Part shown: in pieces, positions 33,001 through 39,000 of the stretch | Numbering within the stretch: position 1 is the first letter of the stretch | How the letters are laid out: the number at the start of each line of letters is the position of its first letter | Assembly: GCA_036339995.1 (NCBI GenBank) | Contig: JAYYZW010000039.1 | Coordinates: forward strand, 35,852 to 99,851 | Reading direction: 5' to 3' | From: Pseudomonadota bacterium | GTDB taxonomy: Bacteria; Pseudomonadota; Gammaproteobacteria; Ga0077536 | Length of the DNA: 64,000 nt | Position numbers: made by a program

Positions 33001-36000
33001 CTGCGCAAGCCGCCATGAAGAGCTAACGCTTTTTCGCTATGCCAGCCGGCCCTATATATTCACCGCGTCGCCGTGCCCCTCGGTTGTTGCGACGACCCGC
33101 GAAGCACTGCGACAGATTCAGAACCGTCCCGAGCTGCGTGAGAGGGTATGGGCAAACGCAAACCGTCTTTATCCGGCACTCGAAAAACTACAGCTCAATG
33201 TCGGGCCGCACACCAGTCCGGTCATTGGTATCGCACTAAATGATCGGGACCTCGCCTTCGCCTGTTGGCAGGCGCTGCTGGCGGCCGGCGTCTATACCAA
33301 CCTGATTTTGCCGCCCGCCGCCCCCGATGGCGGCAGCCTCATCCGGTGCAGCGTGACCGCCGCCCATAGCATCAAGCAAATCGACGCCATCATCGCCGCC
33401 TTCGCCGACGTCAACCGCGAACTAGGGATTGGACGCGATGCAGCGTAACGTTTAGGAACCTCTGAATAAGTCATGGCATATCTGCCTTGTCCGTGAAATC
33501 GCGCAGTTCGGCGTTACGAACCTCGCTAATAGTCCCCGCTATTGCCTGCGTTTCGTGCCTTGATCCGCCCAATTTCAAGAACAATTCAGACGCACCATGG
33601 CTTATTCAGAGGTTCCTTTATTTGAATCCACCGAGACGATAGAGTCGCCACAGAAGACCCCAGGAGAAAATCAAAGGGTGGCGGCGCTGCAGAGCGGTCG
33701 GTTCCATATGAATGCCGGAGTGGCGTTCAACCTTCCACAGAATGTAGTCCAGCGGGTCATTAAAAGTGAAGGCCGCCTTGAACAAGCGCGCGATGGACAG
33801 CAGTTTTCCTTCGACACGACGCAGCCGCCAGGACCATGCGGCCGCACGACGGCGCGCACCAGACAGCTCGGATCGCCACCGGTGATCACCGATCCTGGAT
33901 AGTGCTAATTCCGGTGCTAGCGCGTCGGTAACCGCCGCTAAGGGTTCGGCATACGCCGCAAACAATTCCGCGGCCTTGCCGCGATCTTCGGCTCGAAGCT
34001 CGCAATCATAGGTAAGCGTAAAAGCATGCTTCCACAATGCATCGGTCGAGAATTCCGGTGCAAGCATCGGAATGACCGATTCCATCATGCGGCGGGCCGC
34101 AGCACGCCCGGCGTCGCTCAGGCGCTGCTCTACCGATTCGTCACGCGCGTAAGCGAGCACGAAGGGTTGCGCAAAACGCGCCCAGAAGTAGGAATGAAAC
34201 CGGCGGCTTATCTCGTGTTCGAACTGCGCGAGGGTGACCGTCGCAAACTTCGCGGCACAGCTTCGATCGCCTTTTTCCAAGGTCAGATGGTAAACGTTCG
34301 GCGGCAATATGCGGTTGGCCACTTGATGAAAAACTCCAGCAATACCCTGAGCGTAGTCGTTCAGCAGGATATAGAAATCGAGCACGGTATCTCGCTTGCC
34401 GCGTAAGTGTGAACCGTAAAGGAGAATTGCGGACACGGCCCCGCCGTGTCTGTCGATCAGTTCGGTGACGAACAGGCGGACCCATACGTTCGCGTCCGCA
34501 TCTTCATTGAGATCGAGGATCAGCGGATTATCATCCATAAGCGCGACGCGTGCCGGAAAAGGTCTGGTAAGCCGCGGCGTGTTTGGCTTGCGCTGCAGTT
34601 GGATCCTTGAGCCATGATTCCAGAGGTTCGCTTCGAATGCGCACCCCCGCAGCATAGATGAGGCGAACGAGCATGATCGCGCTGCTCATGATCGTCCATA
34701 GCGCGACACCGAAAAATCCATAGTCTGGACGCCCGATCAACAATGCGACAGTGAGGATGATCAAGCAGGGGTTTCTACGTGCCGTGTAGAGGCGGAAGTA
34801 GGCGTCGAATGGCCTCCACGCGAACATGCTGCAATGGCCCAGCGCATGGAATAGGGCTTCGATCACACGGCCTGTGATGTAGCCGCCGGCGATCAGCCAG
34901 TAGAGCTCTGATCTCCCGAGATCGAAGAAATTGTCGAAACTCGCGAGACCCATTCCCCAGAACACGTACCAGAATGGTGGGTGGATGATATCCATCCCGT
35001 GATCCAGCACGTGGCCGAAGCGGCTGCTTCTAATCGTGACGCGGGCGAGCTTGCCATCGACCGTGTCGAGCAGCGTCATCACCCAGCCGCATGCAAGACC
35101 ACTCGCATAATGACCGTGCAGGAACAACCAGCTTGATGCGAGAACCAGGAGCAAACCGGTGACGGTCACCATGTTCGGTGAAATACCGGCCAAGGTGCAC
35201 CATTTGACGAAGTGTCTGGCGGGACGCGGCCATAACCATTTGGTCACCAAATCCGTTATGCCCTTGTACGAATTACCATACAAAAAATCTTCCAGCAGGA
35301 TTCGATTCTCGGCCGTGATCGGCTTCAGCAGTGGCGGTTCGATCTTGCGTAACTTTCCGTCGAAGCCGTCTAAATTCTGCGACTTCAAGACAACCATATC
35401 GGGCGGCCGCGTTGCGTTTGCGTGGGTGACGACATCGAGGCAAGCCATTGCGCGTGCGGTGTCGACATGCGCCGCCGCGATATTCTCGTCTTCCGCGCAC
35501 TCGAGCAGGCTCTGCCGGTGCTGTATAAGTCCGACGAGCGTGCGCACTTCGAACAGGTATCCGGCGTTTAAAAGAAGCATGCTATCGACACCGGCTAACC
35601 GGGAAAGATCACCAATGATTTCGTCGGTCCCCGCCGCCCGAAGCTGCCGTTCGATGCGTTCGCGTGAGGTGATGCCCCAGAGCCGCTGGTCGGTAGATCC
35701 CACGATGTAGGCGGCGGTGCTCATGCTATACTGCAAGCTCTAGAGTTGCTAAAAAAGCCGTTTAATTATAATCGCTTATATAATCTATCGGCAAAATTCC
35801 AGTCGGCGCACATGCGCATCGCTCATCTGACCGACCCGCACCTGACATCGCTCGACGGCATATCGCCGTTCGCGCTCAAGGGTAAGCGGCGCTTGGGCTA
35901 TCTGTCGTGGTGGCGCAATCGGCGCCGCCAGTACCGTGCGGAGATGCTGAAGCGAATCACGTGCGCACTTGTCGCCGATGATCCAGACGTCACCTTCGTC

Positions 36001-39000
36001 ACCGGGGATCTCGTCCACCTCGGGTTGCCCGCGGAAATCGCTCACGCACGCGAATGGCTGGAGCGGTTGAGTGAGCAAACGCAGGTCGTGCTGGTCCCAG
36101 GCAATCACGACTGTTACCGGCACGACTCTATCGATCACGTCTATGGGCAGTGGGCACGGTTTCTCAACCTGCAACCCAATGATCGCAGTGGATTTCCAAG
36201 CGTATTGCGTAAAGGGTCTGTATCGTTCATCGGAGTATCGTCGGCGTTGCCAATGCCGGTGTGGTCGGCCGGCGGAGATATCGGCCGCGTCCAGATCGAA
36301 AAGCTCGACCGTATTCTGAGCGAGACAAGCGGGACCTTTCGCTGCCTCGGACTGCATCATCCGCCGCTCGTCGGTCAGGTCCCGGGGCGAAAGGCGCTCG
36401 CCGATGCTTCGCTGCTAGAGGGCTTGATACGGAAGCATGGCGTCGAACTCGTATTGCATGGCCATGTTCACCGTAATCGCGAAACGGTCGTCGACGAGCG
36501 CACGCGCGTCATGGCCAGCGCTTCCGCTTCACGCGTTTCCGGGCGTAACCGTGCATCTTTTCGCACGTTAGACGTTCAAGCAAGCGATACGCAATGGCAG
36601 GTGACGGGCAGACTCAAATCTGTCGATGACAACGGCACGTCGATCGTATTGTCGGAGCAAAGCTGGCAGATTGAAAAGCGGCGCGCTTGAGGGCGGTGAG
36701 CGCCTGTTAAGACAAGCGCCTAAGTCCGACCAGTGCGACGGTCAACGCCAGTACTGCGGGCAACAGGGCCGAAGGAGCGGCGGGAATTTCTAGTATCGTG
36801 GAGAGGTGCCCGGTCATCTGTTCGAGTAGATAAAATCCGATCCCAACGGCAGCACCGATAACGAGCCGGAATCCAGTGGAATGTGATTGCACCGATCCAA
36901 TTACGAAGGGCAGGCCGAGCAGAGTCATCGCAATCAATGCCAGCGGTACGCTGATCTGCCGCCAGAAGATCGATTCATATTGGTGGGTGTTGACACCACT
37001 GCCCTCCATCGCACGAATATAGCGATAGAGATCGGCAGACGACAGCGAATAGGCCGGAGCCTGCAAAGTGGACAATTGCTCGCGGCTCAGAAAACTCTGC
37101 CATTCGAGCTCGTCGAGGACGCGGTACCTGATGGCATCGTCCCCCAGAATTTTCTCCTGCACCCCGAACAGCATCCAAGTCTGTTCATCGATGATGTCTG
37201 CCCTGTGTGCCTGCAGCATTCGCTGTAAACGACCGTGCGGCCCTATTTCATAAATTTCAATCTCTTGTGGGATGCGTCCAAACTCGACGCCGCCGACGCG
37301 GATAAATCGATTATCGTGCCGGCTCCAGAATTCAGTTCCGCCCCCTAGTGTCGTCTGAGACAGTGTCCTGGAGCGGAATTCCTGAGCCTGGCGTTCGACC
37401 GATGGAATGACGTAATTCTGTAAGACGACGGTGACGAATATCAGCCCTAAGGCGGCGGCACATGGACCGCGCGCAAGCCGCCATGGTGACAGACCGGCGA
37501 CTCGCATCACGATGATTTCACGGTAGTTGGCCATCGCGCCCAGGCCGAGTATGGCCCCGAGAAGAGCGCTGACCGGTAATAAGTCGGTGATTCGCTTCGG
37601 CGTGGTGAGAAAAACGACGGAAACGGCATCCGAGGTCGTGAAGCTCCCGGTACCGACGTCCTCCAAGGCCTCGGCAAAGCTGAGGAAGCTGAATAGCGCC
37701 AACAACAGCATCAGTACCAAGCCGGCCGCCTTCACGAAATTGAGAGCAAGGTAGCGTTCAACGGTCGTCATTTTCGACGTCTCGCGAGCGGGCGGATTGA
37801 GAACATAGCGATCACGCATGCGAGGAGCGCTGGTACCCACCAGATGTTTGGCAAGGTTTCGTGCTCAACCCAGGTTCGGCCGACGCCGAGCAGGTTGTAG
37901 TAGACCGCATAAACGCCAATCGCGATCGGTATCCTCGTGTAGCGGCCCTCGCGGGGTTTGGAATCGACCAGCCTGAGTGCGGCCAATGCGAGTAGGAGTG
38001 TTGACACCGGCGTCGATAGGCGCCATTGAAATTCCGCACGATCGTGGGCCTGTTTTGAGAGAGACAGTGCCGAAGTGGGTTCCGTTTTTGCTCGATAATC
38101 ACGCGCGACGCTGCGTTCGGCGTTGAGGAATATCGTCAGAGTGTCGAACCTTCCGTAAAAATCCGATGCGTCGGCCGTGCTTTTGTATATGCTCGCGTCG
38201 TTCAGCACGAGCCGATGTCGAGTATCGGTCACGAAGGTTTCCAATCGCCCCGTGCTGGATGTAATGACTTCCATATCGTTCGCTTCACGATCCCGAATAA
38301 AAATACCGACGAGTTCCTTTCCATTCCTACCGATGTCCTCAACGTAGACCGCGCGGTTTTCCTCCTCGAACAGGTAGAAACGCTGAGAGCGAATACGGCC
38401 GAGTTCCGAGGTCGCCTTTGCTTGCGCTCGCAGCTCGTACATGGCGTCATACGCCCACGGCCTAACCACGATCGACAGTGTGCCAACCGCTGTCGCGAGC
38501 AGTATGCTCAGTAGAATCAGCGGACGATGCATTCGATTGCGGCTCATTCCGCAGGCGTGCATGGCGATGATTTCGGTATGGGTATTGAGGCGGCCGAAAC
38601 CGATGATGAGACCGAAATAAAGTGCAAGCGGCAACAGTACTTCGAGAGCGATAAGGGATTTGAAGAATGTTAGGTGCGCGACCTCCGCAGCTTTAAAGAG
38701 CCCACTCGCTGCATCGGTCAGGAATAGACTCAAGCTGTATGCGAGAAAAATAGCGATGAGCGCCATTGCCACACCGATGGAACTCAAGCTGATTTCGCGG
38801 ATTAGATAGCGATCGAAAAGCACGGCATATAAAAAGGCGATGAAGATGGAAATACGGGGGCAGATTACTTAATTTCTTGCAAGCGTGCATTTTGTTTTAT
38901 GCGTTCTCGAAATAAGTAATCTGCCCCCGTATTTCTATTACCGGCGTATCCGCTATGATGAGCAGGTGAGAGTGTCAAATCAACCGTCGATCGAATCAAA

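Follow-up and report, generated by a model that had tools for sequence, protein, structure and literature searches.

Which head group do three genes beside a bacterial serine palmitoyltransferase gene (spt) help to build, and is the route that they encode a new one? The question is raised by contig JAYYZW010000039.1 of an uncultured gammaproteobacterium, of which we analysed one stretch of 64,000 nucleotides (positions 35,852 to 99,851; hereafter, the window). The three genes encode a nucleotidyltransferase, a cytidine diphosphate (CDP)-alcohol phosphotransferase and a metallophosphoesterase. Judging from their sequences, we consider it likely that they are the gammaproteobacterial counterparts of cpgC, cpgA and CC_1158 of Caulobacter crescentus, respectively, and thus part of a pathway that has already been described. 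In Caulobacter, CPG2, a ceramide phosphoglycerate (CPG) with a second phosphoglycerate, is an anionic sphingolipid that can stand in for lipopolysaccharide and is the target of polymyxin.

We read open reading frames (ORFs) across the whole window and characterized them using Pfam, NCBIfam, phmmer, tblastn, AlphaFold, Foldseek, Rfam and PADLOC. For comparison, we used 80 gammaproteobacterial loci related to the cluster in the window and three plasmid loci (from Roseomonas mucosa, from Pseudomonas sp. JS425 plasmid pPNP1 and from Qipengyuania), which were found by tblastn of the CpgC-like nucleotidyltransferase against plasmids. The nearest relative of the source is a metagenome-assembled genome with around 90% protein identity, and locus L001 is related at this 90% level. 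The trio sits inside a 14-kb sphingolipid cluster (29267–43613; Table 1) whose gene order is conserved across the 80 gammaproteobacterial loci, and spt lies next to the cpgC-like gene in 64 of the 66 related loci that have enough flanking sequence. A preliminary description of this DNA had placed three genes next to spt, with the cpgC-like gene convergent with it, and had read them as a sphingolipid head-group module. The ORFs confirm that arrangement, with spt ending at 33448 and the cpgC-like gene at 33618, and the conserved adjacency speaks for the module. The cpgC-like gene runs from an ATG at 34538 to a stop at 33618 (306 amino acids); its ATG, within TATGGATGA, overlaps the TGA of the cpgA-like gene by 8 nt, in line with the translational coupling that had been proposed. 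Among the 62 related loci in which this overlap was assessed, a start overlapping the cpgA-like stop is available in about 47.

The CpgC-like protein matched no Pfam or NCBIfam model, and the Tam41 family PF09139 did not match it even at an E value of 5. Its relationships emerge from structure. An AlphaFold model built from 37 homologues (predicted local distance difference test (pLDDT) score of 89.8) combines a nucleotidyltransferase domain with a winged-helix domain behind it and is structurally closest to Tam41: the top three Foldseek matches are three Tam41 structures (6ig2, 6ig4 and 7ecd; E values of 2e-8 to 6e-7 over around 280 aligned columns), and aminoglycoside nucleotidyltransferases rank next, four orders of magnitude weaker. 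A sequence bridge leads to the same family. PF09139 is matched below threshold by 16 of the 37 relatives, and two members of the family, P0378 at 34.3 bits and P0446 at 37.2 bits, exceed its 24-bit cut-off, making the homology of the CpgC-like protein to Tam41 transitive; the family profile also matches 6ig2 weakly. Residues invariant across gammaproteobacterial, alphaproteobacterial and plasmid members include Y41-G42-S43, D54, K97, W119, R121, Q124, E180, R182 and E184. D54 is the sole invariant aspartate in the nucleotidyltransferase strand, which agrees with Tam41, in which one of three acidic residues is retained (PMC11646218). On the strength of the model, the CpgC-like protein belongs to the Tam41 fold, and the earlier assignment to Tam41 was right. 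No membrane segment was found in the protein. The family is large: clustering at 90% leaves more than 1895 proteins, none of which carries a name, and at 50% there are 1431 representatives (50%-identity clusters) at an E value of 1e-3 or below. A RES-domain reading was rejected: it stemmed from a PDB sequence match (E = 0.003) confined to the C-terminal 87 residues, and fold searches gave it no support.

The CpgA-like ORF is likely to start at the ATG at 35724, giving 397 amino acids, because its homologues are 394–397 amino acids long. The CDP-alcohol signature noted previously is borne out by a PF01066 match to residues 186–256 (E = 4e-11) and by an exact catalytic motif, D224-x2-D-G-x2-A-R-x8-G-x3-D-x3-D249, which spans membrane helices 2 and 3 (residues 210–234 and 239–262). 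Ahead of the membrane helices lie about 160–180 soluble residues. The preliminary description had recognized a soluble domain of roughly this length and had called its fold novel; the length stands, but the novelty does not. With the AlphaFold (AF2) model (pLDDT 87), full-length Foldseek matches were to AF2299 (4o6m, 4o6n and 4q7c) and IPCT-DIPPS (4mnd), over 380–450 columns (TM score 0.50–0.64), and phmmer aligned residues 16–63 of the CpgA-like protein (QRLWGITSRERIERQLRAAG) with residues 41–89 of the AF2299 cytoplasmic N-terminal domain (EKLLGLTLRERIEKTLQRAG). As modelled, the domain is the known degenerate cytidylyltransferase-like module of the AF2299/IPCT-DIPPS type. It is probably non-catalytic, because its N terminus (AAYIVGSTDQRLWG) lacks the GxGxR...K nucleotide-binding signature; W20, R27, R30 and Q31 are its only invariant residues. 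The whole protein falls under every NCBIfam housekeeping equivalog cut-off (PgsA-like, PssA/phosphatidylinositol phosphate (PIP) synthase and cardiolipin synthase). Its best scores are to archaetidylinositol-phosphate and PIP synthases (49.8 against a cut-off of 180 and 42.7 against 170), and ClsA gave 22.5 against 240.

A partner for this transferase is encoded nearby. The CpgD-like protein matches the IPCT portion of the bifunctional IPCT-DIPPS (E = 2.8e-17), carries the motifs GQGRR (residues 9–13), PK (22–23) and GD (105–106), and has PntC and LicC as its nearest solved proteins. Counted over full-flank loci only, the cpgA-like gene is accompanied by a cpgD-like gene in every case (41 of 41). 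This strict co-occurrence, together with the AF2299/DIPPS architecture, supports a soluble CDP-alcohol such as CDP-glycerate, rather than a CDP-lipid, as the donor of the CpgA-like enzyme. The representative library also contains two apparent fusions, of a CDP-alcohol transferase with a CpgC-like protein (P0365, 757 amino acids) and of a diacylglycerol (DAG) kinase with a CpgC-like protein (P0440, 662 amino acids), each as a single representative. Co-occurrence and fusions link CpgA to CpgD and tie CpgC to the kinase as well as to CpgA.

The third gene fits the divergent calcineurin-like phosphatase of the preliminary description. Translation is likely to begin at the ATG at 35812 (MRIAHLTDPHL; 292 amino acids), the product matches PF00149 (E = 1.6e-17), and its five metal-binding motifs are intact (DxH, GD, GNHD, HH and GHxH, present as DPH at residue 8, GD at 65, GNHD at 97, HH at 182 and GHVH at 217). 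The nearest solved relatives are the phosphodiesterases MPPED2, Rv0805 and GpdQ. The gene is divergent from the cpgA-like gene, as is its 41%-identical Roseomonas homologue from the CDP-alcohol transferase gene there, and it is kept beside the cpgC-like gene in several loci that lack a cpgA-like gene. Olea-Ozuna et al. found a CC_1158 orthologue to be absent from the other six genomes that they compared (PMC11324152), whereas most of the gammaproteobacterial loci here do have a CC_1158-like phosphoesterase. In the 87-bp spacer left between the starts at 35724 and 35812, a promoter scan gave one sigma70-like match (minus strand, 35794–35765), which is not above chance for the region, and the promoter and terminator scans as a whole yielded nothing above chance.

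We then asked how this cluster relates to the C. crescentus locus for sphingolipids, CC_1152–CC_1168 (PMC11324152, S1 Text). That locus encodes a protein with a Tam41 InterPro domain (CC_1161, cpgC, CCNA_01219), a ceramide kinase (CC_1160, cpgB), a CDP-alcohol transferase whose N terminus forms a cytoplasmic domain (CC_1159, cpgA, CCNA_01217), a calcineurin-like phosphoesterase (CC_1158), a HIT protein (CC_1157), two LptF/G paralogues (CC_1156 and CC_1155), bCerS (CC_1154), a MobA/CofC-like protein (CC_1153) and a nucleotidyltransferase (CC_1152, cpgD, CCNA_01210) (PMC11324152). The R. mucosa plasmid (L081) provides the link: its order of a divergent metallophosphoesterase, a CDP-alcohol transferase, a DAG-kinase-family protein and a hypothetical protein (the CpgC-like match), followed further on by spt and an acyl carrier protein, equals that of Caulobacter CC_1158 to CC_1162. 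The CpgC-like protein is 38% identical (E = 1.5e-38) to the Roseomonas product encoded at 11902–12810, after the CDP-alcohol transferase and DAG kinase, and the CpgA-like protein is 39% identical over residues 12–377. Identities for the other proteins are 41% (phosphoesterase), 51% (HIT), 46% (CpgD-like), 36% (MobA-like), 47% (bCerS) and 53% (Spt). The claim that the module is distinct from CpgABC therefore fails, because the cluster is homologous, at 36–53% identity, to an alphaproteobacterial cpg locus with the CC_1158–1162 order; what stands of it is that the window has no cpgB kinase. As an observation on the plasmids, the IncP plasmid pPNP1 (L082) carries a complete sphingolipid/cpg-type cluster (1395–19912) next to a class 1 integron that contains sul1, and its bCerS gene is apparently split by an IS5 transposase gene (6730–7583), with tblastn pieces at 5818–6753 and 7653–7865 around it.

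Genetic work in Caulobacter gives these families their likely roles. There, cpgB and cpgC are required for CPG, and cpgA, cpgD and CC_1153 for CPG2, to which CC_1158 contributes partially (PMC9393093, PMC11324152); a cpgA mutant still produces CPG (PMC9393093). CpgB phosphorylates ceramide (bioRxiv 10.1101/2023.05.01.538943) and CpgD makes CDP-glycerate (PMC12275187). The mechanism of CpgC was called unidentified in 2026 (PMC13228409). A CDP-ceramide intermediate, which the preliminary description had thought undescribed, had in fact been anticipated: in 2024, Olea-Ozuna et al. noted the Tam41 domain of CC_1161 and suggested that this protein forms a nucleoside diphosphate-activated ceramide (PMC11324152). 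A CDP-alcohol route, as suggested before, is plausible. We found no support for the accompanying idea of a phosphoinositol or phosphoglycerol head group with a final dephosphorylation; the linked cytidylyltransferase is instead CpgD-like, and the Caulobacter enzyme makes CDP-glycerate.

Following the Caulobacter model, a kinase encoded outside the window would phosphorylate ceramide, giving ceramide-1-phosphate, on which the CpgC-like enzyme would act. Its fold and the Caulobacter genetics suggest, as the simplest case, that it would use cytidine triphosphate (CTP) to form CDP-ceramide on the way to CPG; Tam41 itself acts on phosphatidate with CTP. The CpgD-like enzyme would make CDP-glycerate from CTP and phosphoglycerate, a reaction shown for Caulobacter CpgD only. 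The CpgA-like enzyme, in effect a DIPPS/AF2299-type transferase that has been split off and whose N-terminal domain is probably inactive, would then move phosphoglycerate from the CDP-alcohol to the lipid, releasing cytidine monophosphate and leaving a polyanionic head group. The metallophosphoesterase may have an accessory part, as a phosphodiesterase or phosphatase that helps the last conversion along (the phenotype in Caulobacter is only partial), and LptF2/G2 would export the product. On folds, motifs, homology and co-occurrence, this Caulobacter-type scheme, in which we infer every substrate, is the best-supported reading and probably the correct one.

Several points weigh against this scheme, foremost the kinase. 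A GGDG motif search and tblastn with seven cluster kinases detected no CpgB-type or DAG-kinase-like ORF in the window, and 69 of the 80 related gammaproteobacterial loci have no CpgB-type kinase within 10 kb, so that the first step, ceramide phosphorylation, is without an identified enzyme here. Orthology to Caulobacter is reached through Roseomonas, the plasmid intermediates and published gene descriptions; a pattern scan of genome contigs reached gammaproteobacterial relatives only and no Caulobacter locus. The CpgC-like protein of the window has no Pfam match of its own, and the fusions P0365 and P0440, being single representatives, could arise from a frameshift across overlapping genes or an assembly artefact. 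What the CpgD-like enzyme acts on in this lineage, and hence which head group results, is presumed by analogy with Caulobacter. Finally, we know of no enzyme that condenses CDP-ceramide with glycerate. CpgA does not fill that place, because mutation of cpgA in Caulobacter leaves CPG formation intact (PMC9393093).

The distribution of the kinase among relatives is uneven. In the 11 loci that have a CpgB-like kinase (L022, L028, L029, L031, L036, L040, L041, L057, L062, L074 and L075; mostly labelled Pseudomonadales), the gene lies between the MobA-like and hydroxylase genes. All three plasmid loci have it directly upstream of the cpgC homologue, with a 4-nt overlap in two, and the Qipengyuania plasmid retains only this pair. 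A kinase-profile search gave no match, among the best 120 of 1960, on multi-Mb contigs bearing window-type clusters; this is a weak test, given that cut and given that P0242, identical to the L057 kinase, appeared only with a 4.7-kb contig. Two candidate sites for a missing gene were discarded. Gaps in Lysobacterales and Pseudomonadales loci, considered as kinase or transferase sites, hold a TonB-dependent receptor or a GMC oxidoreductase instead, and the extra gene between the cpgC-like gene and spt in many loci, suspected of being a kinase, encodes a Wzx/MOP-type flippase. L022, at least, also has a GMC oxidoreductase, and several Lysobacterales-type loci have the TonB-dependent receptor between the cpgD-like and Lpt genes. 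Four minimal loci (L005, L018, L042 and L067) keep a cpgC-like gene beside spt and lack the kinase, cpgA-like and cpgD-like genes; L005 and L018 retain the MobA-like, hydroxylase and bCerS-like genes, of which the first two are missing from L042 and L067. In such loci, either an unlinked kinase exists or the CpgC-like substrate differs from ceramide-1-phosphate.

Only the absent or unlinked kinase could alter this picture. We think it rather unlikely that a large clade of gammaproteobacteria, to which 69 of the 80 sampled loci would belong, makes an anionic phosphosphingolipid without a CpgB-type kinase, through an AF2299-type transferase acting directly on ceramide or through new Tam41-like head-group chemistry, alone or with the MobA-like protein, not seen in Caulobacter. 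One explicit form of this idea, which we also regard as unlikely, is that the CpgA-like enzyme takes phosphoglycerate from CDP-glycerate and places it straight on the 1-hydroxyl of ceramide, in the manner of choline and ethanolamine phosphotransferases (CPT/EPT) and insect ceramide phosphoethanolamine (CPE) synthase, with the Tam41-like protein as a later step or a second transferase. It would account for the missing kinase in the window, in the 69 loci and on the multi-Mb contigs, it suits an enzyme of a class that uses soluble CDP-alcohol donors, and it is consistent with the direct coupling of the cpgA-like and cpgC-like genes here, where in Roseomonas the kinase intervenes. Yet Caulobacter can dispense with cpgA for CPG and requires cpgB and cpgC (PMC9393093, PMC11324152), a kinase::CpgC fusion exists, and the kinase-profile test is weak, as noted above. 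The four minimal loci, which keep cpgC-like without a cpgA-like or cpgD-like partner, point to an unlinked kinase.

Quite unlikely, in our view, is the scheme of the preliminary description, in which CDP-ceramide comes from the Tam41-like enzyme and serves the CDP-alcohol transferase as donor, with inositol phosphate or glycerol phosphate as acceptor, and the terminal phosphate is taken off by the phosphoesterase, on the logic of PgsA/Pgp or of PIP synthase (PIPS)/PIP-phosphatase. The Tam41 fold, the adjoining intact phosphoesterase and the coupling or fusion of transferase and Tam41-like protein all suit it, and in NCBIfam the transferase matches archaetidylinositol-phosphate and PIP synthases best; these scores, however, are far under their cut-offs (50 versus 180 and 43 versus 170), and the full-length architecture is that of AF2299/DIPPS, users of soluble CDP-alcohols. 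The strict co-occurrence with the soluble CpgD-like cytidylyltransferase, the absence of an inositol-phosphate synthase from the cluster and the phosphodiesterase kinship of the phosphoesterase argue in the same direction, as does the first head group still made by the Caulobacter cpgA mutant (PMC9393093). A function outside sphingolipids, either in a housekeeping phospholipid pathway (a Tam41-type CDP-diacylglycerol synthase with a PgsA/PIPS-like enzyme) or as a toxin–antitoxin or defence component, is effectively excluded. Tam41 enzymes do act on phosphatidate, the nucleotidyltransferase gives weak profile matches to MNT-type and ANT-type enzymes, and the phosphoesterase partially matches anti-phage phosphoesterase models. 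Against this, spt is the neighbour in 64 of 66 loci and the genes of the whole cluster are conserved together, PADLOC matched neither the nucleotidyltransferase nor the transferase, and the latter is far under the PgsA, PIPS and cardiolipin-synthase cut-offs, as under every other housekeeping equivalog cut-off. The toxin–antitoxin or defence reading of the nucleotidyltransferase was also rejected on its own terms: Tam41 is its best fold, no toxin–antitoxin or defence model matched, and it does not combine such a match with the small, nucleotidyltransferase-only form of MNT/HEPN-type or defence enzymes.

Table 1 Genes and spacers of the sphingolipid cluster (window coordinates)
Feature	Position	Strand	Basis or remark
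AasR	29267–31024	+	NCBIfam fatty acyl-AMP ligase, 736 bits
CerR	30975–31955	+	Pfam Epimerase
AcpR	about 31939–32238	+	Ceramide backbone gene; synteny in 80 loci
Spt	32246–33448	+	NCBIfam serine palmitoyltransferase, 582 bits
Structured spacer, spt/cpgC-like (convergent)	33454–33617		56-nt inverted arms
CpgC-like Tam41-fold nucleotidyltransferase	33618–34538	-	306 amino acids; soluble or peripheral
CpgA-like CDP-alcohol phosphotransferase	34531–35736	-	PF01066; AF2299-type N-terminal domain and six-helix membrane domain
Divergent intergenic region, cpgA-like/phosphoesterase	35725–35811		87 bp, sequence read
CC_1158-like calcineurin-type metallophosphoesterase	35746–36690	+	PF00149; five motifs
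LptG2	36707–37840	-	PF03739 (E = 4e-64 and 3e-60 for the LptG2/LptF2 pair)
LptF2	37768–38823	-	PF03739 (E values as for LptG2)
LptA/OstA-like protein	38885–39493	+	PF03968, E = 1e-8
HIT-family protein, CC_1157-like	39540–39965	-	Weak PF01230; 51% identity to Roseomonas cluster HIT
CpgD-like cytidylyltransferase, presumed CDP-glycerate synthase	40025–40783	-	NTP_transf_3 and NTP_transferase
LpxO/OlsC-like acyl hydroxylase	40897–41712	-	PF05118, E = 6e-51; NCBIfam OlsC 211 bits, under cut-off
MobA-like NTP transferase, CC_1153-like	41639–42499	-	PF12804, E = 4e-9; 36–38% identity to L081/L082 homologues
bCerS-like ceramide synthase	42438–43613	-	No Pfam match; 47–51% identity to L081/L082 genes; synteny conserved

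Other parts of the cluster bear on the lipid and its transport. The third Lpt-like gene fits the LptA/LptD_N (OstA) family and not LptC; LptC2 is, according to a 2026 preprint, reportedly confined to Caulobacter species. By analogy with the role of LptF2/G2 in Caulobacter (bioRxiv 10.64898/2026.04.12.717747), LptF2/G2 and the LptA/OstA-like protein form a putative sphingolipid exporter. An LpxO/OlsC-like gene of the Asp/Asn beta-hydroxylase family is located inside the cluster, and its sequence indicates that the product probably hydroxylates an acyl chain; in Caulobacter, the acyl hydroxylation step is credited to a DesA-family enzyme encoded elsewhere (PMC11324152). Between the cpgC-like gene and spt, where many relatives have the Wzx-like flippase gene, the window has a spacer that forms a long imperfect hairpin over its whole length; the arms measure 56 nt and the closing stem 23 bp. 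The hairpin (minimum free energy -70.4 kcal/mol, z = -8.7) is unique in the window and 93% conserved in L001, and had no Rfam match. The genes that flank the cluster are unrelated to it. Upstream (25750–28614), a LexA gene, a 210-amino-acid ORF without a Pfam match and an ImuB-like gene (IMS family) look like an SOS mutagenesis cassette; downstream, two large paralogues (44252–46666 and 47738–50095) have Laminin_G_3 and DMFA2_C (N,N-dimethylformamidase beta-like) domains.

The locus extends a described pathway to an uncultured gammaproteobacterium, and its oddity is that no ceramide kinase is linked to it. What it adds is a large, well-conserved gammaproteobacterial family of CpgC-like and CpgA-like enzymes, the pairings by co-occurrence and fusion given above, and confident models that assign the Tam41 fold to CpgC and the AF2299/DIPPS architecture to CpgA. 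These pairings and models reveal no new pathway; they constrain the choice of substrates for assays.

Compared with the Caulobacter CPG/CPG2 locus, the window has the same gene families in the same neighbourhood beside spt, acpR, cerR and aasR, namely those of the Tam41-domain protein, of the CDP-alcohol transferase that carries a cytoplasmic domain at its N terminus, of the calcineurin-like phosphoesterase and the HIT protein, of both nucleotidyltransferases and of the Lpt paralogues. It differs in having no cpgB, either between cpgA and cpgC or anywhere in the window, and in containing an LpxO/OlsC-type hydroxylase; identities to the alphaproteobacterial members are only 36–51%, and the flippase gene of many relatives is missing. 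Set against Tam41/Mmp37 CDP-diacylglycerol synthase (6ig2, 6ig4, 7ecd; PF09139), the CpgC-like protein is 13–14% identical, its family has an 'ELRxE' motif and a W/R-rich C terminus of its own, and its presumed substrate, as the model suggests, is ceramide-1-phosphate rather than phosphatidate. With AF2299 and IPCT-DIPPS of Archaeoglobus fulgidus (4o6m, 4mnd), the CpgA-like protein has in common an N-terminal cytidylyltransferase-like cytoplasmic domain and a six-helix CDP-alcohol phosphotransferase with the D-x2-DG-x2-AR...G-x3-D-x3-D motif; a further likeness is that a separate IPCT-like enzyme, here CpgD-like, is encoded nearby. The acceptor differs, being presumably a membrane sphingolipid instead of inositol phosphate. 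The phosphoesterase, finally, has the same five metal-binding motifs as the class III metallophosphodiesterases Rv0805, GpdQ and MPPED2, and its gene adjoins the cpgA-like gene, as in Roseomonas and in Caulobacter (CC_1158).

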